NCBI GenBank assembly: GCA_000004985.1
Contig: GG738921.1
DNA from: Naegleria gruberi
Taxonomy: Eukaryota
Direction: 5' to 3' (one strand)
Length of the DNA: 64,000 nt
Shown: positions 8,556-64,000 of the stretch, piece after piece
Layout: every line of letters begins with the position of its first letter
Numbering within the stretch: the stretch's first letter is position 1
Translations under genes and position numbers: made by a program
The notes under the pieces: generated by a model
What the model was told of the DNA's origin: nothing
What the model saw: only the letters and a program-made list of their open reading frames with translations
Databases searched by the model: none

Positions 8556-8626
8556 TGCATTAGCCGGGAGTCGAACCCGGGTCACCAGCTTGGAAGGCTG
8601 GTATGATACCGTTACACTACTAATGC
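8556..8626 (-). tRNA. tRNA-Gly-TCC: tRNA-Gly (anticodon TCC).
   Basis: The reverse complement reads GCATTAGTAGTGTAACGGTATCATACCAGCCTTCCAAGCTGGTGACCCGGGTTCGACTCCCGGCTAATGCA. The 7-bp acceptor stem pairs. The anticodon loop CTTCCAA gives TCC. The T-arm is GGTTCGACTCC (B box). Confidence 0.9.
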
Positions 8627-8710: not shown

Positions 8711-9049
8711 TTAGCAAGGTCTTGCATAGGCGTATGGGTAAGCATAAGGAGCAGCATATGAAACTGGAGCAACTGCATAAGTGGCAACTGGTGCAGCAAC
8801 TGCATAGGTTGCAGCCACAGGAGCAGCATAGGTAACTGGAGCAACTGCATAGGCATAAGTTGAAGCAACAGGTGGATAGCAATTGACACCTCCATATGCT
8901 CCATATCCTCCGTATGCTCCATATCCTCCATATGAATATGGATAAGCGTATGGATATGCATAAGATGAAGCAATATAAGAATCAGTTGAACAATGCACTG
9001 TGCAAGCAGCAACTAAGAGGACAACCAGAATGGCAATGATTTGTTTCAT
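8711..9049 (-). CDS. Small secreted low-complexity Tyr/Ala/Pro/Gly-rich repeat protein (AYPY, GGYGAY, AAPVATYAV repeats).
   Basis: 112-aa ORF with signal peptide MKQIIAILVVLLVAACTVHC followed by repeats. The overlapping same-strand ORFs 8680..9012 and 8700..8882 are alternative-frame artefacts of the repeat. Confidence 0.55.
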   Translation of the reverse strand: MKQIIAILVVLLVAACTVHCSTDSYIASSYAYPYAYPYSYGGYGAYGGYGAYGGVNCYPPVASTYAYAVAPVTYAAPVAATYAVAAPVATYAVAPVSYAAPYAYPYAYARPC

Positions 9050-9179
9050 TTTGTTTTTTAGTTTTGATTTGTTTTGGAGAATGTAAATCTCGTTTGATTA
9101 ACTATGATTTTTACATACAATAAGATTAGNNNNNNNNNNNNNNNNNNNNNNNNNNNNNNNNNNNNNNNNNNNNNNNNNN

Positions 9180-16462: not shown

Positions 16463-16617
16463 TTTCGTAATTTATTAGAAATGTTGAAAGTTTTGTTATG
16501 AACCAATTTTGTAAAGTGTTGTGCTTAGTATTTGAAAATATTAACACAAGAGGGTAAAGAACTTATTNNNNNNNNNNNNNNNNNNNNNNNNNNNNNNNNN
16601 NNNNNNNNNNNNNNNNN

Positions 16618-31323: not shown

Positions 31324-31395
31324 GCCGCTATAGCTCAGAGGAAGAGCTTCGATCTCCTAAGTCGAAGGTCGCCGGTTCGAGCCCGGCTAGTGGTA
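31324..31395 (+). tRNA. tRNA-Arg-CCT: tRNA-Arg (anticodon CCT).
   Basis: Sequence GCCGCTATAGCTCAGAGGAAGAGCTTCGATCTCCTAAGTCGAAGGTCGCCGGTTCGAGCCCGGCTAGTGGTA. The anticodon loop CTCCTAA gives CCT. A box TAGCTCAGAGG and B box GGTTCGAGCCC. The acceptor stem has two G-U pairs. Confidence 0.8.
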
Positions 31396-33275: not shown

Positions 33276-34063
33276 NNNNNNNNNNNNNNNNNNNNNNNNN
33301 NNNNNNNNNNNNNNNNNNNNNNNNNNNNNNNNNNNNNNNNNNNNNNNNNNNNNNNNNNNNNNNNNNNNNNNNNNNNNNNNNNNNNNNNNNNNNNNNNNNN
33401 NNNNNNNNNNNNNNNNNNNNNNNNNNNNNNNNNNNNNNNNNNNNNNNNNNNNNNNNNNNNNNNNNNNNNNNNNNNNNNNNNNNNNNNNNNNNNNNNNNNN
33501 NNNNNNNNNNNNNNNNNNNNNNNNNNNNNNNNNNNNNNNNNNNNNNNNNNNNNNNNNNNNNNNNNNNNNNNNNNNNNNNNNNNNNNNNNNNNNNNNNNNN
33601 NNNNNNNNNNNNNNNNNNNNNNNNNNNNNNNNNNNNNNNNNNNNNNNNNNNNNNNNNNNNNNNNNNNNNNNNNNNNNNNNNNNNNNNNNNNNNNNNNNNN
33701 NNNNNNNNNNNNNNNNNNNNNNNNNNNNNNNNNNNNNNNNNNNNNNNNNNNNNNNNNNNNNNNNNNNNNNNNNNNNNNNNNNNNNNNNNNNNNNNNNNNN
33801 NNNNNNNNNNNNNNNNNNNNNNNNNNNNNNNNNNNNNNNNNNNNNNNNNNNNNNNNNNNNNNNNNNNNNNNNNNNNNNNNNNNNNNNNNNNNNNNNNNNN
33901 NNNNNNNNNNNNNNNNNNNNNNNNNNNNNNNNNNNNNNNNNNNNNNNNNNNNNNNNNNNNNNNNNNNNNNNNNNNNNNNNNNNNNNNNNNNNNNNNNNNN
34001 NNNNNNNNNNNNNNNNNNNNNNNNNNNNNNNNNNNNNNNNNNNNNNNNNNNNNNNNNNNNNNN
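33276..34063. other. Assembly gap (788 N). Shorter 50-N gaps lie at 9130-9179, 16568-16617 and 56270-56319.
   Basis: Runs of n in the sequence. Each gap truncates an adjacent gene model. Confidence 1.
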
Positions 34064-43941: not shown

Positions 43942-44014
43942 GCCGACATAGCTCAGTTGGGAGAGCGTAAGACTGAAGATCTTAAGGTCCCTGGTTCGAT
44001 CCCTGGTGTCGGCA
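43942..44014 (+). tRNA. tRNA-Phe-GAA: tRNA-Phe (anticodon GAA).
   Basis: Sequence GCCGACATAGCTCAGTTGGGAGAGCGTAAGACTGAAGATCTTAAGGTCCCTGGTTCGATCCCTGGTGTCGGCA. A textbook cloverleaf. The anticodon loop CTGAAGA gives GAA. Confidence 0.95.
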
Positions 44015-44072
44015 AATTTTAATTTTCCAATATTCCTTTCAAACATAAATCTGTCTTTTAGATTTTATTAAT

Positions 44073-44895
44073 AGAGTTCCGGCAAATGCGTATTTTGAAA
44101 ATGCGCTTTTTTAAAATGCGCATTTTTGGTACTGGTTTTTTCTGGTAGATATTGAAAGTGGGTATTTGATTAAATTTAGTCAGTGTTTTTCGGTAAATAT
44201 TGAATTTATTCACTCTTCAACAATTACATCAGAGTCAATATTGAACATGGATTTTTTTGGCATTACTATATACCTTTGGTTGAAGAAATACTGGTATTTC
44301 TATATTCATATCAATTTCCTTTACAGACTTGGTCTTGAAAGATCCTTTTTTACCTGGTGTTACCAATCCATATGATGCCAATCTATCTTCTTCATCCACA
44401 CCATGAGAATCAGTTGGCTGAGTTGAAGTGGAATTTGGATTTTGTGATTGATTTTGTGTAGGATCTGCAGAACTCGAACCAATTTGTATCTAATGAACTG
44501 GAACCAAGTTACTATCTCCATGGTAAATATTATGGAACTAAAGACAACAATGGATCAAGTTTCCGAATTCATACCAGAAAAGGAGAAAGAGTTTGCAGCT
44601 TTGGCAGAAACAAAGAAACTACAAAAGAGCTTTTTCGAATCTCTCAAAAAACCCAAACAAACGGATCAATAATTATCGAAATTAGAAAGAAACTGTTGGG
44701 AATAAATTCAATGTTTATCAATTAATTTCGAAAAATACCGATTAAACACCATGTGGTGGAACTGGTTTTGATGGGTTCAATAAATTTCGAAAAACGTCGA
44801 TTGATGGCAATCACCAACACCCACCAAAAAAAACCGGTACTGAAAATGCGCATTTTTTGAAAATGCGCTTTTTAAATGCGCATTTGCCGGAACTC
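44073..44895. mobile_element. Non-autonomous MITE-like DNA element, 823 bp, with about 75-bp terminal inverted repeats and TA flanks.
   Basis: The left TIR is 44073-44147: GAGTTCCGGCAAATGCGTATTTTGAAAATGCGCTTTTTTAAAATGCGCATTTTTGGTACTGGTTTTTT. The right TIR (44826-44895) is its reverse complement, about 90% identical, and ends CCGGAACTC. Each arm has three palindromic AAATGCGCATTT-type motifs. TA sits immediately outside both ends. There are subterminal direct repeats AATTTCGAAAAAYRYCGATTRA at 44718 and 44781. The internal ORFs are short with no transposase. Confidence 0.6.
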
Positions 44896-44969
44896 TAATG
44901 TAAAGATAGTTTCAAATTTGCTACAATGAGCGTTTCAGCGATCACACATCAAAACACAATCCATTAAAC

Positions 44970-48449: not shown

Positions 48450-50040
48450 ATATTACAATTCCATTAGAAACATGTGTTTATTCTACCACGTAAAAACTTC
48501 CTTATGGAGATGGAATCTAATTCCATTTCTTTCATTTGCATCCCAAATGGCATTCGAAACTGAAGTTACCAATTGTTCTGGACCACAAACTAAAACACCA
48601 ACATATGCATTCAATTCTCCTCTTTCTTTCATTTCCTTTTTCACTTGTTCCAAGAATTGTTTTGGATTGGCTCTTCCTTTATGAATAAATGCTGTTTGTT
48701 GTGAATTTTCTTCTTTCATTTTGGAAATGAAAATATTTGGTTTTAAATTCTTATTTCCATTCGTTTCCAAGAGTTGAGGAAATACTTGAATCATATCAGT
48801 GGTTGGAATTGACCAACAAGTATAAACAGTCTTATCTTGAATATTCTTTTCCAACAAGTGTGAATAAATTGAATGAACTGGTGTAATACCAATTCCACCA
48901 CCAAACATGACAATTGTCTTGTATCTCAATAATGGAACTGATAATGATCCATAAGCACCTTCAACTCTACAAATTAATTCATTGGCTGATTGAGCCTTCT
49001 CTTGAGCAATTTTTGCAACTTGTTTTGACCATCCACTTCCAAAATTCTTTACATGAACTGTAAATTCTAATTCCTTCTTTTTAATCATTCCACCATCAAT
49101 TTCCTTACAACTACTAACTGTGATTGGATGGTGTTGATATTTTGAAACAGCAGGAATGTATAAGAATATGAAATGTCCCATTGAAGGATTACTGCCAAAT
49201 GTCAAGAATGGTTTTCTCATTGTAATGGTTGTAACTTGACTCTTTTCATCATATTTGATTGAATCAATTTTGGTTGGAATACCAAATCCAAATACCACTC
49301 TCAAAAATACATCAAACAGATATAATAAAATTGATAATGCCATATAAGGTAATAAATTAATATATCCAGAACCATGAATAATTGATAAAATGACAATTAA
49401 AATGGACAAGATGACATGTGAAATTAAAAAGACCTCCCATAGCTTTCTTCTTATGACTGGGAATGTCATTAACCAAAGAATAGTCATGAAAAACCATGCA
49501 ATAATTCCCAAAATTGGAAATGTTGGAGATGTCACATCAACTAAATATAATCCAGATGCATTATAATGAACAACCATTGCAATTCCATGAGCAGTTACAA
49601 AAAACCATTGTAAAATACCCAACCATCTGTGATATTTAATTGCTCTATCAAATGAAATTCCAAATAAAACTTGTAAAACTGAATATCTCGTGACTGGAAA
49701 TAAAATTAATCCAAAATTGAAAACACAAACAGAAGCAAATGCTTTTCCAGCTTCAGCTGATGTTGCATTCACATATCCAAATGCAAACCAAATGGCCACA
49801 AGAATCCAATAACATGAAATTACAACAGCTTCACCCAAAGTTAAATCTAAAATGGTATTAATGTAAATTCCAATAAATTTCAAATTGACTTGTTTGGTCA
49901 ATCTTCTGTACAAGATCAAATCAAGGAATAGATTTGGATTCACTCTTGGTCCAATCACACTCAATAAGAATCCACCAATAACCAACAATCCACAAATGAA
50001 TGCAGTAGCAATCAAATGCCATCTGTAGGAATTGGCAAGT
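48450..50040. repeat. Inverted-repeat arm (partner 59150-60740). Near-identical 1.6-kb 3' portions of the two DOMON-ferric-reductase paralogs.
   Basis: The encoded C-terminal about 530 aa are identical except GIPTK/GVPTK, KIAQEK/KVAQEK, EKNIQDK/EKNVQDK and KMKEEN/KMKDEN. Identity continues about 30 bp past the stop codons and then ends abruptly. Upstream of about 50030 and 59160 the copies are only about 70-80% identical. Confidence 0.85.
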
Positions 50041-51576
50041 TTGGTCAATGAGTTCATTGAGATACTTCCATCCTTAATGTTGCCAGTAGAAGAACCACAT
50101 GTGGCCAATTCACTGCCAGGAGGAGCTGCCAAGTGTGCCAAAGTAGCTGTTTGTAAAAAGTTAATCATGACATTTTTGCCTCTGTAATTGTGGACATATT
50201 CCATGGATGTAGATGTTTTGGCTATAGCCCAAGAAATTGAAATTTGTGCATTTGTAAATAAGTGATCCAATGAATCCTTAGTATTGACCAAACGTGTCCA
50301 TTTCAAATGAAGTTCATAATTTCCACTCACAGATCTTAATCCTCCATTTTTGGAAATGAAATCTTGAGATGAATCTAATGTTGGTGCTTGAAGATTACCT
50401 TGCATGTATGTGTCTAATATAACTGGGTTTCCACTTGAATCCACATATCCAAACATTGTATCAGCAGTGTCCATTCCAGAGTTGGTTCCATGATTAAATC
50501 CAATTGATGCATAGCCATAAATTCCTGTGGCAATCAATCCAAATTCAATAATTGGTACATTTGCATCATTTGGATTTGTTAAAACTTTCCAATACAATTT
50601 CAAAGAATCAGAAGTTCCATAATTAGCAACTAACTTGTAATTAGCTGTAGGATAATCAGCAGAGTTGACCCACTGAGTTAAAATACTTTGTGAATATCCA
50701 GTTTGAAGTGAACAGGTCGAATTACTACTACTAGAACCTCCATCCGAAACTACTGGTTGACTTGGCAATACTCCATACTCACCAGTAGCATAACCAGCTG
50801 AAAGGAAATTCAAACTTGGACCTTTGCCAGTGCTGGTATGTCTAACCATTCCAGTACTGGTGGAGTGGAGTGCCCAGGAAGTTTTCATGACTGCATTGGT
50901 GAAAATGACATCGTGGGAATCTCCTGTTTTAACGAAACGTGTCCACTTGATATGTGTCTCACCTGTGGCCGAGTTGTATCCACCATTTCTTTGAAGGATA
51001 TCATCGGAAGCATCACTCACTGGTGATTGTGGCTTTGCAACCATCCATGCATCCATGATGGTTACACTTTGAGAAGCACTATTATAATACCCGAAAACTT
51101 TATCAATTCATCATCATTAATAATATTAAGTTAATATTGCCAATAACAACTTACTGGTATCACCCTTCATTGGATCTCCATTTAAATAACCAAAGCAAAA
51201 CGAGACGTAACCTCTCGTGTTTTTGGCCACAGCTCCAAATTCCAAGATTGCATCATTAATATCAGAGCTTTTTTCATTCCTTAATAATTTCCAATATAGC
51301 TTGAGATTGGAACTGAATGTGGCCACATTTCCCGATGGATAATCAGTGGAAGATACAAACTGAGTATTCATACTCTGACTGTATACAATAGTTGCCTTAC
51401 GTTCCGAACCTTTTATTCTTCTAGTTGTATTATAATTATTATAAGTATCTAATATTTTATAATGATGATGATGAAACTCTTGAAAGCAACAACAACATCA
51501 TCATCATCGTCAATACAATAATCAAACTCCTTAGCCATTGACTCGAAATTAAATGATGATTCTTTGATAACGCCAT
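48483..51576 (-). CDS. Ferric-reductase/NOX-like transmembrane oxidoreductase with two N-terminal DOMON domains (copy A). Exons 48483..51097 and 51155..51371, plus a 5' signal region up to ATG 51576 that is out of frame.
   Basis: Intron 51098-51154 (GTAAGT..GATAAAG). DOMON-like repeats x2. A 6-TM ferric-reductase core with His pairs. FAD motif HPITVSS and NADPH motif GGGIGITP. The N-terminal exon MALSKNHHLISSQWLRSLIIVLTMMMMLLLL.. stops in a (TCA)4 run before reaching the DOMON frame. Confidence 0.75.
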
Positions 51577-52400
51577 TTTTCTTATTACTTCTTAATTTGT
51601 TTTAAAAGTGCATCACAATTTGGCCATTACTGTTCATTCATATCTCTCACTTGTGTATGGCCACTGTAATAGAAGAAGGTTCTTAGAAGTGGAGTGGATC
51701 AGTCTTTGGGTTTTCCAAGTTCTTCATTCCAATATTAGTTCTGATAATTATTAGTGAAAGAATATAATTTGGAAAGTCTGCAATCTTAATCAATGCCATC
51801 TTGATGTCATTATCCTATCTCATTTCCTTTGAAAGTTCAGCATTGCATTAGAAATCATTTCCAACACCGTTAAAGAATTTCAGAAACAATTTCATTGACT
51901 TTGGGTATTCTAATCAATTTCTATTTTCCCAGATAGGAGTGTTAAATCTATTGCTTGCAACCAGATGGTTACCTTTTTGGAAATTTACAGTATTGAAGCT
52001 TGTTTCTTTGACATGGTTTACAATGCTATTTTCAATTTTGAGTTCTCATAGAACCATTCAAAGTTGATTGTAAATTGTAATTTTATAAAATATATGGAAA
52101 TCTTTATTAATAATCTTACTATCGTTAAATTAGAGTTTCACGGTACACATATTTAATTGCCTACCACTTTTTCAAGAAAATCCCTTTAAAAAACCTTGAT
52201 TTCCATTAATGATTCTACTAGACCATGTTTAGAACACGGTAACCATTTTAAATTTTACAATATCTTTGTGCATTTCCCTTCTTGTAAATTAAATATTGAT
52301 ACGAGACTACTTGTAAACCCTATAAATGAAGCTAAAATTGCCGTTGCTTCATTCAATAACAAACAAAAAAACAATTAAACTCATTATTCGAATCTCAAAA

Positions 52401-52577
52401 ATGTCTGCCCAACAAACTATGATTGTCATGATGCTCTTGGCTTGTATCATGTTCTTCTTTGCCTCACCAATTAATGCTCAATATTATGAATCTGAAGTTT
52501 ATGCTGGTGCTGCTGAACAAGGTTTTGCTGCCATGTTGTTGATTGCCATCTTGGCTGTTATTGGAATGGTATTCTAA
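52401..52577 (+). CDS. Small (58 aa) two-helix hydrophobic peptide.
   Basis: MSAQQTMIVMMLLACIMFFFASPINAQYYESEVYAGAAEQGFAAMLLIAILAVIGMVF. A perfect 8-bp hairpin GTATGCCA..TGGCATAC lies about 80 bp downstream. Confidence 0.3.
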   Translation: MSAQQTMIVMMLLACIMFFFASPINAQYYESEVYAGAAEQGFAAMLLIAILAVIGMVF

Positions 52578-53401
52578 ACTACTGATGTAATTCTAATAAT
52601 TTCACTCTTCTTCCTTTGTATATTAACTAGTAGTGTCAGCACCCATACCGGTATGCCATTAAACAAAGTGGCATACACCATATTGTATAATATTTGTAAC
52701 AGTAAATAACATTGTTATTTGAATTCATTGTCAAAACAATTAACCAACAGAGTTAGAAGAAGATAAGCTGCTCACTTTGTTTGATTGCGAAAACTCAATT
52801 AATTACTCGGTAACAATCAGAAAGGATTACAGACAAGCTTGCACCATGCCAAAATTTACATTTTTCAAATATTGTAAAAAAAAATTGTGAAAAATGTTAG
52901 GTTCACTGTGGAGAGGCTGATTTTCGGAGTGGTTTCTCGTGATGAAACTCTGCGAATTTCACAACATTATTTCAACACGACTTGAATAGTAGTAATAATA
53001 GTAATTTTTATTGGTGGATTAGAATTATGAAAATTGGAAATTATTTTTCGTGATGGAAAAATTCAAGGTGATGTTTCCATCACATCCGTATCATTCACTA
53101 CTATATCTGCTGGAAAAGTGTCAAAGCAACATTGTTCGGAATGGTCAATAGTAGGGTAGGGAACTTTCTCTGGTAAATTTTGAGCAAGTTTTGATAGGTA
53201 AAAAACGAATTTACAAACAACATAGATGTTAAATGTGAATAATTTTCACCACTTCAGAAATCACTCAACAACCTGATTTGCAAGCTATAAAACAATAAAT
53301 AGGTTTTACCAACACAAATAAGAAAACCACATAATATTACCGTTACGAAATTCAACAAAAAAAAATACAACAATCTGTACCAACATGATGACTGAATGCT
53401 T

Positions 53402-54619
53402 TTACTTGAGTGGGACGTAGGCAGGTCTTCTCATCTCACTTCTTCTTCTGCTCACATAAATAATTCCCACCACAGCAATCGAAGTTGCCAAAACCATCAA
53501 CACCCCACCAATGGTAGCACATATAATGATGGCCAGATTTTCCTCCTCCTCCAAAAGTGATGATAGACCTCTGGGAGGATGATTCTGAGAGGATTTTCCA
53601 ACAATTGGATGGAATGGATGTGGAGAAATTCCCCTCCTAAAGGTGGGATAGTCCTGTACGGAGAAGGTTGTGCCATTCATCATGATGTTTAAATCTCCGT
53701 AGAGTGAGTGGATGTAATGGCTGTTTTGGCAGAGTTTGCATTTGGAGTTTTGACTTCCTTCGATGCAACTTTCCATCTTGTAGCTCATTACTGAGAATTT
53801 TGTAAAGATTTCCAGTTGACCTTTGATTTGAGCAGCAGCTCCTTTGCATTCATCACGTGAAGTTTTCTGAATAATCATTTCATAGTTGGCTGTGAGAATA
53901 TCATATCTGTTAGTGGTTGGTTCAATTTGAGTTGCATTTCTAAACTTGACAAATAATTCAGTGCTTGGATCTGGATTTGTGGAAAACCAATTCGAATCAT
54001 CATGATACAGAAAATTATATTGGAAAGTATCTGATGGATAGGGAATTTCACTCCTTTCCAGAATTACTGTCAATGCATGACTATGTAATGTGATACGAGT
54101 GCAATTATTCTCCTCTGAAAATGCAAATGAATATCCACGAACATATTGAATCCACTTGTAACAGCCATAGGATATGACCGATTGACTAACAGAAGAAAAT
54201 AATCCAATATTCACCTGACAGGTTAAACTAGCTTGTGATCCAAATTGAAGAATGGTATCATTTTGGACTAGATTAAATGTTGAATGTTGAATATTGACCA
54301 TAATATCTTTAAATTCATCGGATTTTCTCTCAAGGTCAACTATATGGAAACGTGCTGTTGAAGAACCAAACCAGACAAACATTTGATTAAAATCACTTTC
54401 TCTCGTTTGGCTTTCCTTCATGTAAATGCTCCGATAATAGTTTCCCGATAGACATTCATTACTTTTCACAAATTGACCATTCGTCAGTAGAAGTAGTATG
54501 CATATCATCATGATAAAGAAAAGTATTGATGTAAAATTAATGTTGTTGTTGGTGCTGAATTGATGAAGTTTAGGTGTAGACATTTTTTCTTTAAATTCAG
54601 GAGTTTTGGCAGTTAACAC
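53402..54619 (-). CDS. Hypothetical type I membrane protein (N-terminal signal/anchor, Cys-rich ectodomain, C-terminal TM).
   Basis: 405-aa uninterrupted ORF. C-terminal TM AIIICATIGGVLMVLATSIAVVGIIYV followed by a basic tail. Confidence 0.45.
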   Translation of the reverse strand: MLTAKTPEFKEKMSTPKLHQFSTNNNINFTSILFFIMMICILLLLTNGQFVKSNECLSGNYYRSIYMKESQTRESDFNQMFVWFGSSTARFHIVDLERKSDEFKDIMVNIQHSTFNLVQNDTILQFGSQASLTCQVNIGLFSSVSQSVISYGCYKWIQYVRGYSFAFSEENNCTRITLHSHALTVILERSEIPYPSDTFQYNFLYHDDSNWFSTNPDPSTELFVKFRNATQIEPTTNRYDILTANYEMIIQKTSRDECKGAAAQIKGQLEIFTKFSVMSYKMESCIEGSQNSKCKLCQNSHYIHSLYGDLNIMMNGTTFSVQDYPTFRRGISPHPFHPIVGKSSQNHPPRGLSSLLEEEENLAIIICATIGGVLMVLATSIAVVGIIYVSRRRSEMRRPAYVPLK

Positions 54620-55096
54620 ACCGAATCTCCATTGAGGGCGTTGACACTGTAAAATTTCGTCCGCACCATGATGTATTTGCCCTTAGATTGGTTCAACACC
54701 ATGTTACCATTGTTGTATCCAAAGCATTAAGTTGATGTTATTAATTTCACATATATCCAAATTGGAAATGAATAAATTTGGAATATTGCCAAAGCTGGAA
54801 AATAAGGGAGTTTGATAAATAAACTGGACTAAATTTTTTAAATTTATCAAACAAACTCAAACAAAATGAATAGAGAAGAATCCAAACAAGAACAAATTCT
54901 ATCCGCACAAAGAAAGCAACATCCACATCTAGGACCATCTGGTTGGCCACCAATGAATAAGAAGAGGGATGATACAATCAGCACAGAAAGAATCCAAGGT
55001 CGAGAGAATGCTCCTCATGTTGGTGAATCCAGTGTAAACTTTAATCAAACAGAGGATCATGATTGGGTTGTTTTGTAAATATTTTACATTGATATA

Positions 55097-56078
55097 TTAT
55101 ACAGTTGTTTTAGCAGTAAATTCCTCTTCCAAACCTTCCAAAGTAGAAAATCCATCTGATAATGTAATGATTGTTACATCACACAAATCTGTCTTTTCGT
55201 TAAACTTGTAAATAAAGTGAGTGCCAACATTATTTTCATCCTCATAGAATAGAACGTTGTAATCAGCTGTTCCATTTCCAGAAATTACACTAGGATACAC
55301 TCTATACTTGACATTTCGTTTTAATATCAAGTCTCCTGATTGTTTAAAGTCAATATCTGAAAGTTGAATTTCAAATTTGCTAGGTCCTCCTAAAATTACA
55401 AATTTTTCTATTCTCAATCGTTAGAATATTCACAATTCTCGTTCAAACTTACCTTTGGCGAGAATGGCAACCTTATTTTGAATCAAATAAGCATCGAATA
55501 AGGAACTAGGATTGATTCCGTGCAAACTCAAATCAATTTTGGTCCATCCACTGTGCATTTGTGCTGAACCAAGATTTCCAGTAATGTACAATTCATTATT
55601 CTCGGTACAAATTAAAGAAACCCATTGTCCAGCACTAATAGCCTTAATCTTACTATTTGTTGGAACAGTTAGAGGCATTGGATCATAAATCTTGTTTGGT
55701 GTTGCATACCCCAATTGTTGATAATCATTAGATCCGAAAACAACTCCACTATCATCCTCAAATATTACTATACAATAAGCATAACCAGAAGCAATCAGTT
55801 TGACTGATTTCCCCTTCACTAATGGTGATGCTATTTCAACAGGTGTATGAATATCATGTTCAGAATCTGATGGTTGTTTAGCAAACTGTGCAAGACCTGT
55901 ATTTCCACAAAAATACAATCTCTTATCAGGTACAGTCACAAAGTAGGTGTGGCCATATCCAGAGTAGGCAGATCCGAATGCCTGTACACCTTCTGGAACG
56001 ACAACCTTCTTGGCCTTGATTTGTTTGGTATAATCGAGTGAATTCTTATCATCAGTTCCAGTTTGTCCCCTTTATAAT
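55097..56078 (-). CDS. RCC1-repeat (beta-propeller) protein. Intron at about 55418-55465. The 5' end lies in or beyond the gap at 56270-56319.
   Basis: RCC1-like blades (VVFGSNDYQQLGY, LYITGNLGSAQMHSGW, YFCGNTGLAQF). ORFs 55430..55939 and 55097..55417 are joined by a GTAAGT..AATAG intron. The open frame extends upstream to about 56078. Confidence 0.55.
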
Positions 56079-56412
56079 TAGATCCAAAATATTTTACATC
56101 ATGATCAATTTGTTGATGATTTAATTATTTAATTAGATCATTTATAATATTTAAATATTCATATGATGATGATGATGATTGATGAGATGGAATAATAAAT
56201 TTTGATCAATTCCAAGATCATTATATTAATATATTAATAATATTAAAATTACACACAAATGATCAAAGANNNNNNNNNNNNNNNNNNNNNNNNNNNNNNN
56301 NNNNNNNNNNNNNNNNNNNCCATCATCTCCATTTTCATTCTTTTCATCCTCCAATCCATCACCAAACTCCTTTTTATAAAATAAAAGGAATAATTTAAAT
56401 TATAATAATTGT

Positions 56413-57174
56413 TTAATATTTATTCCATTTAACAGATTCATCAAGCATAGAGCAGAAATAATCAAATTCAATTCTAATCATCTTCTCTTCAGGTTTGTAA
56501 ATTAATTTAAATTGATTAATTCCAAATTTCCATAAAATACCATCATGCTCCCATTTAAATGCATACCACTTATCACTAAACAAAGGAGGAAGGCTATAAT
56601 TTCCAGCAAACAACCAATGATATGTTATCTTTGGAACTATTCTTCCTTCCCTTGCAATGCCACCCTCAATCAACATCTCTTCTTTTAAAATGCTATATGG
56701 TTTTGCCTTTTGTATTTGATAATCAAAGAATAGCTTTGCTTCGTGATCATCTGTTACAGAAACATAATGTTGATGATGCCACTTGACATTATGGGTTGTA
56801 TCTGGCTGAGCATTTCTAATAACTACCTCCTCAATAGTTCTCGGAAGTACCTTTAGGTATCTTGTTGCATAATATTCATCAGAATATTTTTCATCCATTA
56901 TCTCACGCAGTGTTATTGTTGGTAGGGAAGTATCAAAAAAGTATTCAAGTTGTTGTCTTTTCTCTAATGGTATGTTCACTTTCTTACTCTCTTCACTGCC
57001 TTCAAGAATGTTTGTTACTTGGCGTTTAGCTGTTTTCAAATCATCAACCTTCTCTACAACAAAACGTATTTTGTTTGTATTGTTATTCTTCTCCAACGAT
57101 TTATTCATAGCTACCCTCTTACTTTTGCTCAACCTGTATACTTCAAATGTTACTTCTGTTTTGTTGGTGACCAT
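56413..57174 (-). CDS. Hypothetical protein (253 aa).
   Basis: Uninterrupted ORF with compositionally normal coding sequence. No recognisable domain. Confidence 0.35.
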   Translation of the reverse strand: MVTNKTEVTFEVYRLSKSKRVAMNKSLEKNNNTNKIRFVVEKVDDLKTAKRQVTNILEGSEESKKVNIPLEKRQQLEYFFDTSLPTITLREIMDEKYSDEYYATRYLKVLPRTIEEVVIRNAQPDTTHNVKWHHQHYVSVTDDHEAKLFFDYQIQKAKPYSILKEEMLIEGGIAREGRIVPKITYHWLFAGNYSLPPLFSDKWYAFKWEHDGILWKFGINQFKLIYKPEEKMIRIEFDYFCSMLDESVKWNKY

Positions 57175-57719
57175 AGAAAATACTTGTTTGTTTTGTTTTG
57201 ATTTTGTTGTTGCTCATGTTGTTGTTGTTGTTGATATGTGGTGTTGTTGATGTTATTGTATTTTTTTTTACGTGAGTTTACAAATTGAAAAACAAGCAAG
57301 AATGAAACGCGGTGCCAAATGGAAATAAGATAAAAAACTGATAGGTAATGCATTCTGGACATTGTTGAATGAACCATTATCGATATCTAGTGTATAAAAT
57401 AATCTCCTTTTGGTTAGCGACATGAATTGTTGGGAGCTGTTAATATGTAAAAGGTCAAAACGAAACACCCAATTTTTCATGTTTCCTTTCCGCTCTACTT
57501 CAAGTTTCGAATAACGTCTATTGGGGCTACCTGAAGAACACAATGATTAAGAGAGAACTTCACATGCCAATTCTTTTGGTGAACGATTTCTCAAAGTTTC
57601 CAATGGTTTCGGATAGGTGATGCAAATAGCCACTTGGATTCTTTTAGCCATTTGTTTCATCAGAAAGTCAATTTAGGTTTCAGCCCTTGCCGAACTTGTA
57701 ACTGGATACCAACAAAAAA

Positions 57720-60708
57720 ATGGCGTTTTATGTTATTCGAAACTCGCAGCTCTTTCTTCTGTCTGCACTCTTGTTGGTAACAGTTTTAGCATGTCATGAC
57801 CCAGCACATGCAGCAAACGTTACCTATAGCCAAAGTATTGAAACTCAATTCGTAAATCCCTCTGATTATCCAGCAACAAACGTTGCCTCTTTCGGTTCGA
57901 ATCTGAAACTTTATTGGAAACTCTTAAAAAACGAAAAGAGTTCAGATATTAATAATGCCATTCTAGAATTTGGTGCTGTTGCTCTTCGTACTAAAGGTTA
58001 CCTTTCCTTTTGTTTTGGTTATTTAAGTGGAGATCCAATGAAGGGAGATACCAGTAAGTTATTTTTTTATTCGAAAGTTCTAAAGCATTAATATTCAATC
58101 TAAAGTCTTTGGTTTCTTCAATCAAGCTTCAGGTAGCATCACTGTTATGGACGCTTGGATGACTAACAAACCTGCACCACCAACCAGTGATCCCTCTGAT
58201 GATATCATCCAGAAGAATGGAGGGTTTCGAACAGTTAATGGAATATCCGAAACTCACATGAAATGGACACGTTTCGTCAAGACCAACGATACTAGAGATG
58301 TTGTATTTACTAACACTGCCATGAGAATGTCCTGGGCTATTCACTCAACTAGTACTTCAATGGTGGAACATACCAGTCAAGGAAGTGGCACAACTGTTAA
58401 CTTTCTTTCGGCTGGATTCGTAACTGGTGAATATGGAAAGCTTCCACAACCACCAGTGATTGCAACAGGAGGTGGAAATAACTGTTCACTTCCAACTGGA
58501 TATTCACAAAGTATTTTAACTCAGTGGGTCAATTCTGCTGATTATCCTGCAGCTAATTACAAGTTAGTTGCTAATTATGGAACATCTGATTCTTTGAAAT
58601 TGTATTGGAAAGTTTTGACCAATCCAAATGATGCCAATAATCCAATTATTGAATTTGGATTGTTGGCTACAGGTATTTATGGTTATGCTTCACTTGGTTT
58701 CAATCATGGAGCTAGTTCAGGAATGCAAACTGCTGATACCATGTTTGGTTATGTAGATTCAACTGGTAAGGCAGTGATTATTGATGCTTACATGCAAGGA
58801 AATTTGCAAGCACCAGCTCCAGACACCACTCAAAATTTTATTTCAAGCAATGGTGGTTTGAGATCTGTCAATGGCAATTATGAACTCCATTTGAAATGGA
58901 CACGTTTGGTAAATACTAAGGACGCTATGGATTATACATTCAGCAATGCACAAATTCCAATTTCATGGGCTCTTTCCAAAACTTCTACTTCCATTACTTC
59001 TGTTCACAGTTACAGAGACAAGAATGTCATGATTAATTTCATGCAAAATGGAGCTTCCACTGAAATGGCAGCTCCTCCTGGCAGTAGTTTGGCATGTGGA
59101 TCAAGTAGTGGTTCACAAACTGGAACTGTTGTCATTGATGAAGGTTTGAAATTAGCAAATTCCTACAGATGGCATTTGATTGCTACTGCATTCATTTGTG
59201 GATTGTTGGTCATTGGTGGATTCTTATTGAGTGTGATTGGACCAAGAGTGAATCCAAATCTATTCCTTGATTTGATCTTGTACAGAAGATTGACAAAACA
59301 AGTCAATTTGAAATTTATTGGAATTTACATTAATACCATTTTAGATTTAACATTGGGTGAAGCTGTTGTAATTTCATGTTATTGGATTCTTGTGGCCATT
59401 TGGTTTGCATTTGGATATGTGAATGCAACATCAGCAGAAGCTGGAAAAGCATTTGCCTCTGTTTGTGTTTTCAATTTTGGATTAATTTTATTTCCAGTCA
59501 CAAGATATTCAGTTTTACAAGTTTTATTTGGAATTTCATTTGATAGAGCAATTAAATATCACAGATGGTTGGGTATTTTACAATGGTTTTTTGTAACTGC
59601 TCATGGAATTGCAATGGTTGTTCATTATAATGCATCTGGATTATATTTAGTTGATGTGACATCTCCAACATTTCCAATTTTGGGAATTATTGCATGGTTT
59701 TTCATGACTATACTTTGGTTAATGACATTCCCAGTCATAAGAAGAAAGTTGTGGGAAGTCTTTTTAATTTCACATGTCATCTTATCCATTTTAATTGTCA
59801 TTTTATCAATTATTCATGGTTCTGGATATATTAATTTATTACCTTATATGGCATTATCAATTTTATTATATCTATTTGATGTATTTTTGAGAGTGGTATT
59901 TGGATTTGGTGTTCCAACCAAAATTGATTCAATCAAATATGATGAAAAGAGTCAAGTTACAACCATTACAATGAGAAAACCATTCCTAACATTTGGTAGT
60001 AATCCTTCAATGGGACATTTCATATTCTTATATATTCCTGCTGTTTCAAAATATCAACACCATCCAATCACAGTTAGTAGTTGTAAGGAAATTGATGGTG
60101 GAATGATTAAAAAGAAGGAATTGGAATTTACAGTTCATGTCAAGAATTTTGGAAGTGGATGGTCAAAACAAGTTGCAAAAGTTGCTCAAGAGAAGGCTCA
60201 ATCAGCCAATGAATTAATTTGTAGAGTTGAAGGTGCTTATGGATCATTATCAGTTCCATTATTGAGATACAAGACAATTGTCATGTTTGGTGGTGGAATT
60301 GGTATTACACCAGTTCATTCAATTTATTCACACTTGTTGGAAAAGAATGTTCAAGATAAGACTGTTTATACTTGTTGGTCAATTCCAACCACTGATATGA
60401 TTCAAGTATTTCCTCAACTTTTGGAAACGAATGGAAATAAGAATTTGAAACCAAATATTTTCATTTCCAAAATGAAGGATGAGAATTCACAACAAACAGC
60501 ATTCATTCATAAAGGAAGAGCCAATCCAAAACAATTCTTGGAACAAGTGAAAAAGGAAATGAAAGAAAGAGGAGAATTGAATGCATATGTTGGTGTTTTA
60601 GTTTGTGGTCCAGAACAATTGGTAACTTCAGTTTCGAATGCCATTTGGGATGCAAATGAAAGAAATGGAATTAGATTCCATCTCCATAAGGAAGTTTTTA
60701 CGTGGTAG
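57720..60708 (+). CDS. Ferric-reductase/NOX-like transmembrane oxidoreductase with two N-terminal DOMON domains (copy B). Exons 57720..58053 and 58133..60708.
   Basis: Signal peptide MAFYVIRNSQLFLLSALLLVTVLACHDPAHA. Intron 58054-58132 (GTAAGT..GCTTCAG). The domain order matches copy A. The C-terminal about 530 aa differ from copy A at only 4 residues. Confidence 0.85.
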
Positions 60709-60754
60709 AATAAACACATGTTTCTAATGGAATTCCAGAATGTAGTGATTTATT

Positions 60755-63487
60755 CTAGAATAAAAACTCGCAGTCAGCAAATCTTGAACTATCCACTAAT
60801 TTTTCAAGTTTTCTAATCATGAAAATCCAACTATTGTTGTGTTCTGTCTTTTTGGTAAAAAACACAATCATATTATCCAATCCAATACTCAGGTTCAAAT
60901 CATATCCATATCTAGCTAAGTATGGAGCAAATCTAACCTTTAGCAAAGACAAATGATTAAATTGAACCATTTTTTCACTCTCTTTGATAAATTTAGTTCC
61001 ATCCTCTTGCTCGTCTTCATTTTCAGGTACAGCACTTATTGATCTGATTCCAGATGAGTCTCCAGAGAAGAAGAATGTTCTATCATCTCTTATTGAGCTA
61101 TTAGCTTGATGATATTGGAAAGGAACTAACATTTTGTTCAAATAGTTAGAATTGTGAATACCCGTAATAAATCTAGAATCTAAATTTTTCGTAGCATCTT
61201 TAGAACATTCCAGTACCATCGAATATTGTTCAGAAAAAATTGATGAAGGACGGAGCTTGTTCAAAGTCTCATGTATCTTGAAGTGAGTTGTGAAACTGTA
61301 AAATGACGGGTAGCCAATCTCACTATAAGCATTACTTCCTAAAATAAAGCTGGTATAGTCTTCTAGTGAAAAAATAACACCTTCTGGTAATTTAGAAATA
61401 TTTACAATATTACCATGTAACCTATTTTCCAAAGTATTAAAGTACATTTTAAATTCAAAATCAGATTTTTCAATCAAAATTGGATAAGGAAGAGGATTTT
61501 GAATCCTAGTCAGATCATTACGTTCAATGAGTGTCAAAACTTCTAAATTTTCCTTCCAGTTATCGTATGCATCTCCAATTAGTATTGATCCTGATTCTGT
61601 AAGAACATCCGTAAAGGCTCTAAAGTATTGTGTATCGCTATCAAAGTAGGCATCGACTGGTACAACATGTCGTTTTGACTCATTATTAATATCATTTCTA
61701 TTCCTGAAATTTTCGCATCCTTTTGGCCCTATTTGCAGGAAAGGATTCAGAAGAGAAAAGGTCAGTAAATGTGCAGCGTAACCCTTTGCTGGGAAGTGAT
61801 AAAGTTTGTTACATTTAGTAACAATAAATGATTCATAAAATGTGTTAACAAGTTGATGAACTCCTTGATAACCTTTCTGAGTAAAGCAAAATTGATTTTC
61901 AAAGAAAATGAGATCCTTTCTCTTATGTGAAATGTTCAAAACAAACAGTTCAGTGATATTTTTTGTCAAATCAATTTCACTGAAAATGTCTAGAGAAAGT
62001 AGAGTGCATATTTGAATTGCGAATTGATAATTTGTAATTATTTCAGTGAAAATCAAGTATGCTAAATCTCTCAAAAATAGTGTTTCAAATGAAGAATACT
62101 TTCCTGCTTGAAGATATCCATCCTTAAATACTGCTATTAATAATTGAATAATATCATTGGAAGTGATATGTTCTTCAACAGATGATATCAGTTGGATAAG
62201 TGTTTCAAGTCTTTTCATGGCATTTTGACTTTGAATAGTTTTATCCTCTACTTTAGGTGCTTCATTAATTCCTTCCAGAACAGTGAATCCAATTTGTTCC
62301 ATTTCGAATGAGAATGAGTTAATCCAATCTTTGATAATATGGAAGATATCTAAAGAATTCATTATTTGCCAAAGCCAATAGCACGTAGATTTCTGGACTA
62401 CATATCCATTAAATATCAAGTCCTTGCTTCTGCCAATATTTTGTGAAATTAAGTATTCCCTAATGCTTTCTGTAGTGACTGTTGAGATTCTACAAAGAAT
62501 AAATTGTGAGCTTTCAAAATTATGTAATCTTCCAGAAAAGTAAATGTTTCCTTGCTCTGTTACAAGTATTGTGTGCTGAGAACCGCATGCAACTTTGACT
62601 GGTCGTTCATTGTGAAATAAAGAAGAAGTTACTTGTTGAGCTTTGCATGGTTCTGTATGTGAACAATTTGGAATTGATAATTGTTTTTGTAAATTTTGCC
62701 CAAAAGCATACAATTGATTAGATTCGGTAATGAAGAAGGCAAAATCAGCTCCGTTATGAATTGATTCAATTTTTTCTTCCACCATACAATCACCATCGTA
62801 TAGTGAAATCTTTGATAGAGTTTCCACAGACTGTATTCCATCTCCAACATCACCTGTATTTAAAAATATTATTATTGTTTCGAATAGAAATTACAACTTA
62901 CCAATAATATAAACTTGTGAATCACATTCATTTAAAATCATGGTACCATTTTCCAAACTAACAATCTGTTTTATCCTAAACTTTGCACCTTCCACTCTAT
63001 CAGGAATTTTAACTCCGATCAAGTATGTCATCAAGCTGTCATCCTCTGCCAAATCCAATCCAAAGTTCTTCTCCTTCTCTCCCAACTCTCCATTCGGTTT
63101 TAAATCAGCAAGTTCCGCAAAATTTACTCTCCTTTGCATCCTTTGTACAAATGATTTAATTTGTTTCTCATAATCATCAATATCAATCAAACATTGTGTA
63201 TTAGTATTTCTACCAGTAACAAATACAATATTTTGCAACGGATTATCCTCATCACCTTCTTCTCTCCAATATTTTCTCTTCTTTGAACCATCACCATCAC
63301 CACCAGCACCACTACCATTACCATCATCACTCTCATCCATATTTTCGGAAGAGATCGCCCGATCAGATGAAAATAATTCCACTTCACCAGTACCTTCCGG
63401 AATGATCGACGTGGAAAATCCTAACAAACTGGCCTGTAAAGCAAAATTTAGAGCAGCCAAATGGATCGGAGCGGCTGATGAAAGCAT
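60755..63487 (-). CDS. Large RCC1-like-repeat protein with a long C-terminal region of unknown function. Exons 62902..63487 and 60755..62853; 48-bp GTAAGT..ATACAG intron.
   Basis: N-terminal blades (IVFVTGRNTNTQCLI, LYAFGQNLQKQLS, VKVACGSQHTILVTEQGNIYFSGRL). The exons join in frame (..YIIG|DVGDG..). Confidence 0.5.
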
Positions 63488-64000
63488 TTTGATGTAATTT
63501 TTTTAAAATTTTAATTATAATAAAATTAAAAGATTTCTTGTTGTGATGGTGATCATCAAATAGTGAAGATTCAGACCATTAGTATTAAAATTCAAGTTTG
63601 TTGTTATCAATTAAATCAAACAAATAAAAAATTTGAAAAAAAAATAATCACTTCATCTCAGCATTGCTGATTATCTTCATCATTTCAATACGGAATACAT
63701 TGATATTCAATGTACATCATCTTTGGATATCCATCAATAGTAGAATAGTAATTTTATTGTTTGAAATTTTAATCATCAAGAAATTTAATATCATCATCAC
63801 TTGGGAAAAATTTCAAATCAATAAATACATCTCGGATGTTGTTAGAACAGGTTAATTTGCTGTTCTAATAGTATTTTAAATAGTATTCCGCAAGTTTACT
63901 CTTTGAAATTATTTTTAATTTGGCTCAAAGTCGATTTTCATCAAAATCATTAAAATCGGCCTATCTACTTGGTCATCACAAAAACCATCAATTGGAGATT

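Follow-up and report, generated by a model that had tools for sequence, protein, structure and literature searches.

How can two paralogous genes be almost identical over the half that encodes their catalytic core while silent differences at the other end of the same coding sequence are saturated? We address this question for two DOMON-DOMON-ferric-reductase genes, here called A and B, that lie within a 64,000-nucleotide stretch (the window) of contig GG738921.1 of Naegleria gruberi (assembly GCA_000004985.1). An earlier note on this DNA had drawn attention to the pair and had treated its host as an amoebozoan; N. gruberi in fact belongs to Discoba, Heterolobosea. Gene A occupies positions 48483-51576 on the minus strand (NAEGRDRAFT_75169, XP_002669946.1 / EFC37202.1) and gene B positions 57720-60708 on the plus strand (NAEGRDRAFT_82019, XP_002669907.1 / EFC37163.1, UniProt D2W1C9), both on one 207,235-nucleotide scaffold. 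The genes are divergent, with start codons at 51576 and 57720, 6.1 kb apart, in agreement with the inverted pair about 6 kb apart that had been described. From the comparisons below we consider interlocus gene conversion the likely origin of the near-identical 3' halves, and we infer the recombination mechanism from the pattern of sequence differences.

The near-identical segments form an inverted repeat with ungapped arms of 1586 nucleotides, 98.1% identical and 9106 nucleotides apart, as established by a repeat search and a base-by-base comparison. Arm A spans 48457-50042 (minus strand) and arm B 59149-60734 (plus strand), running from the first transmembrane helix (TM1) through the stop codon and 26 nucleotides of 3' flank. 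Three of the 30 mismatches between the arms fall within the first 9 nucleotides, which leaves a clean tract from 59158 to 60734 with 27 mismatches in 1577 nucleotides. A nucleotide alignment with synonymous counts inside and outside the tract had been set beforehand as a check, and it revealed that divergence is not uniform: 1.7% of positions are mismatched in the clean tract, compared with 27% in the homologous coding sequence upstream of it. A maximum chi-square scan placed the breakpoint at B coordinate 59158, and the observed statistic was reached by none of 200 permutations. The tract starts abruptly at the codons for ..KLANSYRWHL.., just before TM1, and stops 26 nucleotides past both TAG stop codons, beyond which the sequences are unrelated. 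Both the extent given earlier, from ..LANSYRWHL.. to about 30 bp past the stops, and the abruptness of the two transitions were thus borne out. The earlier description of the copies as virtually identical is apt for the proteins, which differ at four of about 519 residues in the tract (three I/V and one E/D), whereas the DNA, with its 30 mismatches, is only near-identical. The DOMON domains encoded upstream are 68-80% identical between A and B. At the 5' edge of the tract lies a hypervariable Ser/Gly/Thr-rich linker between DOMON2 and TM1 (B 59094-59148, plus strand; A 50043-50103) that contains indels.

Of the 27 differences in the clean tract, 22 affect third codon positions, and neither reading frame is interrupted. 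The longest run free of differences is 230 nucleotides (P ~0.33), and the differences are compatible with a single age; a nested, very recent event at the 3' end was considered and rejected, the 230-nucleotide run not being significant. Three clusters of three A/B differences within 12 nucleotides or less were also observed, at 59749-59757, 59986-59997 and 60477-60483 and at the matching positions of arm A, a mild excess over uniform placement (P ~0.01). The clusters may stem from patchy mismatch repair, from multinucleotide mutations or from short islands that escaped conversion.

The two gene models are colinear over the entire coding sequence and have in common an intron position after ..GDT. 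Gene B consists of exons 57720-58053 and 58106-60708 and encodes 978 amino acids; its spliced translation is identical to the deposited protein. For gene A, we propose exons 51576-51478, 51395-51155 and 51097-48483, encoding 984 amino acids, with a first intron that lacks a consensus donor and whose exact borders are therefore uncertain. The public model of gene A matches exactly an 857-codon open reading frame (ORF) at 48483-51056 (minus strand) and is truncated, beginning at an internal Met at 51056. The upstream exons (51097-51576, minus strand) are present and in frame, and are absent from the public model; this region codes for the hydrophobic N-terminus and the first half of DOMON1.

Silent-site divergence of the two halves

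Synonymous (dS) and nonsynonymous (dN) divergence were calculated by the method of Nei and Gojobori (NG86) for the N-terminal 426 codons and the C-terminal 519 codons, and the same two halves of the single-copy ortholog pair from N. fowleri and N. lovaniensis served as the control. Between A and B, the N-terminal half gave a dS of 1.13 and a dN of 0.20, while the C-terminal half, which is the tract, gave a dS of 0.076-0.079 and a dN of 0.003-0.004. The control showed no such drop, with dS values of 0.90 and 1.04 for the N- and C-terminal halves, respectively. Fourfold degenerate sites behaved in a similar manner: A and B differ at 56.5% of these sites in DOMON1, 38.6% in DOMON2 and 5.8% in the catalytic half, whereas the control values are flat (51%, 47% and 49%). 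By these counts, the roughly 15-fold drop in silent divergence is specific to the N. gruberi paralogs, and the catalytic half has no intrinsically low silent rate. These data agree with the earlier placement of the conversion tract in the transmembrane and FAD/NAD half. Its description as recent holds in a relative sense only, a dS of 0.08 being about 7% of the divergence of the upstream half. The dN/dS ratio in the diverged 5' halves is about 0.18, and by this measure both copies remain under purifying selection.

An old duplication in which selective constraint alone kept the catalytic half similar, including constraint on synonymous sites through codon usage or mRNA structure and with no exchange between the copies, might be suggested by the stronger conservation of this half between species (71% identity to the N. 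fowleri protein, compared with 55-67% elsewhere). Such constraint should, however, also hold down silent divergence between N. fowleri and N. lovaniensis, where the catalytic half is as diverged at silent sites as the DOMON half. In addition, the identity of A and B extends past the stop codon and then ends abruptly. Because the ortholog control is flat and the 26 nucleotides of 3' flank are identical, selection is ruled out as the cause and non-reciprocal transfer is required; constraint alone is effectively refuted by the ortholog control. Naegleria encodes RAD51, DMC1, MSH2 and MSH6 (PMC9928731), which we count in favour of conversion.

Several observations weigh against conversion or deprive it of support that might have been expected. 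A signature of GC-biased conversion was not found, GC content at third codon positions being lower, not higher, in the tract (0.23) than outside it (0.28-0.31). The outgroups N. fowleri and N. lovaniensis are single-copy, and A and B pair in trees of the DOMON domains as well. Finally, a gap of 50 N (56270-56319) lies between the copies, so that how far apart they lie and how they are oriented to each other depend on the original scaffolding, and look-ups of exact protein sequences (A, B, exon 1 of B, and a third protein, P0004, described below) returned no independent contigs.

The last two points bear on the possibility that the arrangement is an artefact of the Sanger draft assembly, arising because the consensus is chimeric, because an alternative haplotype was entered as an extra copy, or because sequence was wrongly joined across the gap. 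The existence of an unplaced 2,987-nucleotide contig with the mosaic protein P0004 likewise indicates that the family is hard to assemble or structurally heterozygous. Assembly duplication should, however, yield identical copies and assembly collapse a single one, while the arms differ at 30 sites, mostly silent and with frames intact. Each arm and both unique junctions fall within sequence that has no gaps (34064-56269 in the case of A, 56320-64000 in that of B), the flanks of the two copies are unrelated, and both 5' halves are under purifying selection and would need a catalytic half each in order to function. The assembly alternative raised in the earlier note is weakened by the differences and the uninterrupted junctions, and we consider an artefact of this kind decidedly unlikely. 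A related possibility is that A and B are allelic haplotypes of a single locus that the scaffolding placed next to each other, one of them inverted. Heterozygosity is known in N. gruberi NEG-M (literature summarised in PMC9928731), and alleles could conceivably differ by the 1.7-1.9% seen in the tract. Colinearity and common flanks would be expected of alleles, whereas here the flanking genes are unrelated; the 5' halves are 27% different with saturated synonymous sites, and linkers and signal peptides differ. An allelic origin is therefore very hard to credit.

Divergence strata and history of the pair

The N-terminal identity of 70-80% reported earlier is close to the values for the DOMON proteins. 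It is not uniform along the sequence, however, and conceals a second patch of high identity that covers the first 54 codons of DOMON2 (B 58483-58644, plus strand; A 50553-50714). In the 5' to 3' direction, A-B synonymous divergence is saturated in DOMON1 (proportion of synonymous differences 0.74), 0.17 at the start of DOMON2, 0.83 in the rest of DOMON2, 1.5 in the linker (dN 0.79, with indels) and 0.08 in the catalytic half. The ortholog control gave a dS of 1.52 for the second patch. Since divergence between A and B is stratified and the control is flat, at least three exchanges of different ages are implied, at variance with the single tract proposed earlier. Judged by its dS and length, the second patch would be both older and shorter than the catalytic-half tract, and the series suggests a contraction of the convertible region toward the 3' end.

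These observations fit a scheme in which the N. gruberi lineage, once separated from N. fowleri and N. lovaniensis, acquired a second copy of an ancestral DOMON-DOMON-ferric-reductase gene, inverted and head to head with the first. The copies would then have exchanged sequence by non-allelic (interlocus) gene conversion, that is, homologous recombination repair with one paralog as template. Conversion would have retreated toward the 3' end: DOMON1 would have escaped first, the last homogenisation of DOMON2 would be younger, and that of its first 54 codons younger again. The most recent homogenisation would have covered the 1.6-kb segment for the transmembrane haem and FAD/NAD(P)H dehydrogenase domains together with the 26 nucleotides of 3' flank. 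In this scheme the indel-rich linker, no longer alignable, may act as a homology barrier that halts heteroduplex extension and so produces the sharp 5' edge, while the 3' edge would simply be the end of the duplicated unit.

It is also possible that the genes have a one-off chimeric origin, in which a single recent event (a partial segmental duplication, template switching or one long conversion) pasted the 3' half of one gene onto an older, diverged paralog, with no other exchange. The spread of differences within the tract, which is that expected for a single age, and the sharpness of both tract edges are consistent with such an event. The upstream divergence, however, is non-uniform where the control is flat, so that several events are needed, and the colinearity of A and B over the whole coding sequence, with a common intron position, also argues against a pasted 3' half. 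We regard a one-off origin as improbable; mechanistically it would still be a non-reciprocal transfer, differing from repeated gene conversion in the number of events only.

To place the duplication in time, neighbour-joining trees of 15 DOMON domains were examined. DOMON1 of A groups with DOMON1 of B (95% bootstrap) and DOMON2 of A with DOMON2 of B (90%), and the split between DOMON1 and DOMON2 is older than the genus. Because the A and B domains pair in these trees, the gene duplication appears to be specific to the N. gruberi lineage, although early conversion could give the same grouping; the gene is single-copy in both N. fowleri and N. lovaniensis. Among the DOMON1 positions at which the two copies disagree but the outgroups do not, the outgroup residue is retained by B in 27 cases and by A in six, which points to copy A as the fast-evolving one. 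In the DOMON half, dN is about threefold higher between A and B (0.20) than between the orthologs (0.07) at similar dS. Taken with the shared catalytic core, this hints at subfunctionalisation of the extracellular electron-transfer modules. The introns of the family were also compared. The N. fowleri ortholog (L001 10001-13021) is intronless, and that of N. lovaniensis has a 70-nucleotide intron (L003 10369-10438) inside the Arg codon of ..PMRGDT.., in phase 2. The N. gruberi introns (B 58054-58105, A 51098-51154; 52-57 nucleotides) follow ..GDT in phase 1, three codons downstream of the N. lovaniensis intron, near it and not identical in position.

A further member of the family in N. gruberi is P0004 (EFC35437.1 / XP_002668181.1), a partial three-DOMON protein encoded on the unplaced contig mentioned above. 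Its residues 1-190 are 100% identical to DOMON1 of gene A. The second DOMON is B-like over its first two-thirds, with residues 226-285 identical to DOMON2 of B, and residues 301-345 are then identical to A; the C-terminal part comprises a unique Ser/Thr/Pro-rich linker followed by an A-like third DOMON. This mosaic would point either to exchange within the family or to assembly or haplotype complexity, and P0004 might represent a third locus, an allele of A with a different structure, or a chimera produced in assembly. Since the mosaic protein suggests shuffling of DOMONs between loci, one may conceive of a modular diversification system in which recombination keeps an invariant core across DOMON-FRE loci, while the linker insulates DOMONs that diverge and are shuffled or duplicated between loci. 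We hold this extension to be doubtful. If true, it would provide a set of ectodomains that differ in their extracellular electron acceptors, and the 9.1-kb inter-arm segment could occur in populations in both orientations through crossover between the inverted arms.

Inverted paralogs kept near-identical by intrachromosomal, non-reciprocal exchange are familiar from the human Y-chromosome palindromes and the oppositely oriented RHD/RHCE genes, which have sharp identity boundaries and mosaic divergence, as do A and B. The Naegleria pair is smaller (1.6-kb arms, 9.1 kb apart), homogenisation covers just a part of the gene, and the host is a heterolobosean. A literature search found no described example of inverted-paralog conversion in heterolobosean protists. 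Homogeneity among N. gruberi paralogs does have a precedent in flagellar alpha-tubulin, for which Lai et al. (1988, PMC2115128) describe some eight homologous DNA segments of exceptional similarity; that family is dispersed and similar over whole genes, compared with the partial and sharply bounded similarity of A and B. Searches of the literature by identifier and by topic found no prior description of the A/B locus, and none of the six accessions and locus tags searched occurs in any paper.

Read as gene conversion, the locus is a clean but ordinary case: the instance is new, but it belongs to a known phenomenon and a known protein family, and it does not alter how gene conversion or FRD enzymes are understood. 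What it offers is a quantifiable case of partial concerted evolution in a heterolobosean. It would also place paralogs of kilobase scale among the targets of ectopic homologous recombination in N. gruberi, for which most of what is known about recombination and sexuality comes from indirect evidence. Phylogenies and ortholog calls of Naegleria DOMON-FRE paralogs will mislead if based on the catalytic half, and short-read mapping, RNA-seq quantification and proteomics cannot separate A from B over the 1.6 kb.

Domain architecture and predicted electron path

The domain order proposed earlier, two DOMONs followed by a NOX/FRE core, was recovered by Pfam, which matched DOMON (two stretches, E=3e-20), Ferric_reduct (E=1e-19), FAD_binding_8 (E=7e-7) and NAD_binding_6 (E=2e-12); a family profile found two DOMONs each in A, B and the N. 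fowleri and N. lovaniensis proteins. In gene B (plus strand), DOMON1 is encoded at 57813-58458, split by the intron at 58054-58105, and DOMON2 at 58483-59061. The Ferric_reduct transmembrane domain follows at 59461-59805 and contains two H-x13-H pairs (residues 597-611 and 668-682). FAD_binding_8, with the motif HPIT, and NAD_binding_6, with GGGIGITP and CGP, lie at 59950-60642. The haem-ligating residues H597/H611 and H668/H682 of B are kept in A, N. fowleri and N. lovaniensis.

This architecture had been called uncommon in the earlier note. It is, however, already published and widespread. Zhang et al. (2013; PLoS One 8:e58126, PMC3591440) described an eFRE DOMON subfamily, model M10, with seven N. 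gruberi paralogs and homologs in Albugo and Phytophthora, including a two-DOMON form with a signal peptide. A and B have exactly this architecture and are members of the subfamily; neither the inverted pair nor the homogenised catalytic half is discussed in that study. An exhaustive search of 1.84 billion cluster representatives gave 3647 matching proteins (E <= 0.001), and a family-specific profile detected one to seven DOMONs upstream of the reductase core in 59 of the 148 best cluster representatives outside the gene pair.

By sequence, the nearest relatives with solved structures are NOX2, cyanobacterial NOX5 and DUOX1. NOX2, NOX5 and DUOX (8gz3, 8kei, 5o0x, 6sz5, 7d3e) have in common with A and B a homologous dehydrogenase and a six-helix bis-haem core, and the dehydrogenase region aligns to NOX2. 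The NOX signature includes His-119 in TM3, four residues after His-115, and NOX2 carries His209/His222 (PMC3591440). In the Naegleria proteins the residue four positions after H611 is Met (AHGIAM), and the second His pair, in TM5, is spaced by 13 residues, compared with 12 in NOX2, where HMMER introduces a one-residue gap. Membership of the NOX group, which generates reactive oxygen species, was rejected, both the signature His-119 and the NOX-type TM5 spacing being absent. Because His-119 is replaced by Met and the TM5 spacing is 13, the proteins fit the metalloreductase (FRE) group, and we class them as predicted metalloreductases of that group, flavocytochromes of a known type.

For the DOMONs, one Met and one His are invariant in 15 family domains, including both DOMONs of A and B; across 49 diverse DOMONs the His is invariant and Met is the majority residue. 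An AlphaFold2 (AF2) model of DOMON2 of gene B, built from the 49-sequence alignment, adopted a DOMON/cytochrome fold with high confidence (predicted local distance difference test score, pLDDT, 94.2; predicted template-modelling score 0.90). Its best matches in the PDB were the DOMON of human dopamine beta-hydroxylase (DBH) and the haem-b cytochrome domains of pyranose and cellobiose dehydrogenases (PDH/CDH), the latter with template-modelling scores of 0.5-0.6. No significant matches came from a search of PDB sequences with a DOMON profile. A full-length AF2 model made with six sequences had a pLDDT of 46.5 and was discarded.

From these features, electrons would be expected to pass from cytosolic NAD(P)H to FAD, through two transmembrane b-haems, to one or more DOMON b-haems held by the Met/His pair and on to an acceptor outside the cell, for instance Fe(III) or Cu(II). 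Of the two DOMON ligands that had been put forward earlier, haem or sugar, the first is reasonable given the invariant Met/His and the confidently predicted fold, so that a path to a putative DOMON haem and a putative metal substrate may be drawn; a sugar-binding role is less likely. N. fowleri cells have a constitutive extracellular ferric reductase activity to which no gene has been assigned (PMC7326272).

A comparable route exists in the CYBDOM proteins (Arabidopsis HYP1/CRR, animal FRRS1/SDR2), which likewise join a two-haem membrane conduit to a Met/His b-haem in an extracellular DOMON. Ferric and cupric reductase activity has been demonstrated for HYP1, and M90/H174 have been proposed to hold its third b-haem (PMC10784544). 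Membership of CYBDOM was considered for A and B and rejected: Pfam gave no b561 match, and the membrane domain is Ferric_reduct. The membrane module of the Naegleria proteins is, in contrast to the cytochrome b561 of CYBDOM, of the NOX/FRE type with its own FAD/NAD(P)H dehydrogenase, so the donor would be NAD(P)H instead of ascorbate. By analogy, the A/B protein would work like a CYBDOM protein and is not a member of that family.

Surroundings of the pair

The unique spacer between the start codons (51577-57719) contains a 405-codon ORF for a membrane protein, an RCC1-like gene and a 253-codon ORF, all on the minus strand, as well as the 50-N gap. No protein-level similarity was detected among the left flank, the spacer and the right flank; as far as these comparisons indicate, the duplicated unit is the gene only and not part of a larger duplication. 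Genes with RCC1-like repeats occur both in the spacer (55433-55939, minus strand) and to the right of gene B (60758-62827, minus strand), the stop codon of the latter being only about 20 nucleotides from the tract edge. The two share no detectable similarity (blastp, E <= 1e-3), which places them outside the duplicated unit. Synteny of the spacer genes with N. fowleri, first suggested by equal ORF lengths (405 and 169 amino acids), proved wrong: ORFs within 10 kb on either side of the N. fowleri ortholog gave no match in the window except the gene itself. A scan of the spacer for bacterial promoters and terminators stayed at chance level and is irrelevant for a eukaryote.

Other runs of N in the window, at 9130-9179, 16568-16617, 16703 and 33276-34063, are scaffold gaps; the last, of 788 N, lies within a very AT-rich stretch (GC 0.21 over 32-34 kb). 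The window also holds three tRNA genes, for Phe-GAA (43942-44014, plus strand), Gly-TCC (8556-8626, minus strand) and Arg-CCT (31324-31395, plus strand). Just downstream of tRNA-Phe is an inverted repeat (44072-44154 / 44815-44897) with arms of 83 nucleotides, 80% identical and 660 nucleotides apart. Adjoining tRNA-Gly is a direct repeat (8747-8879) of two 61-nucleotide copies with 75% identity, 72 nucleotides from start to start, which is probably a short coding or low-complexity repeat.

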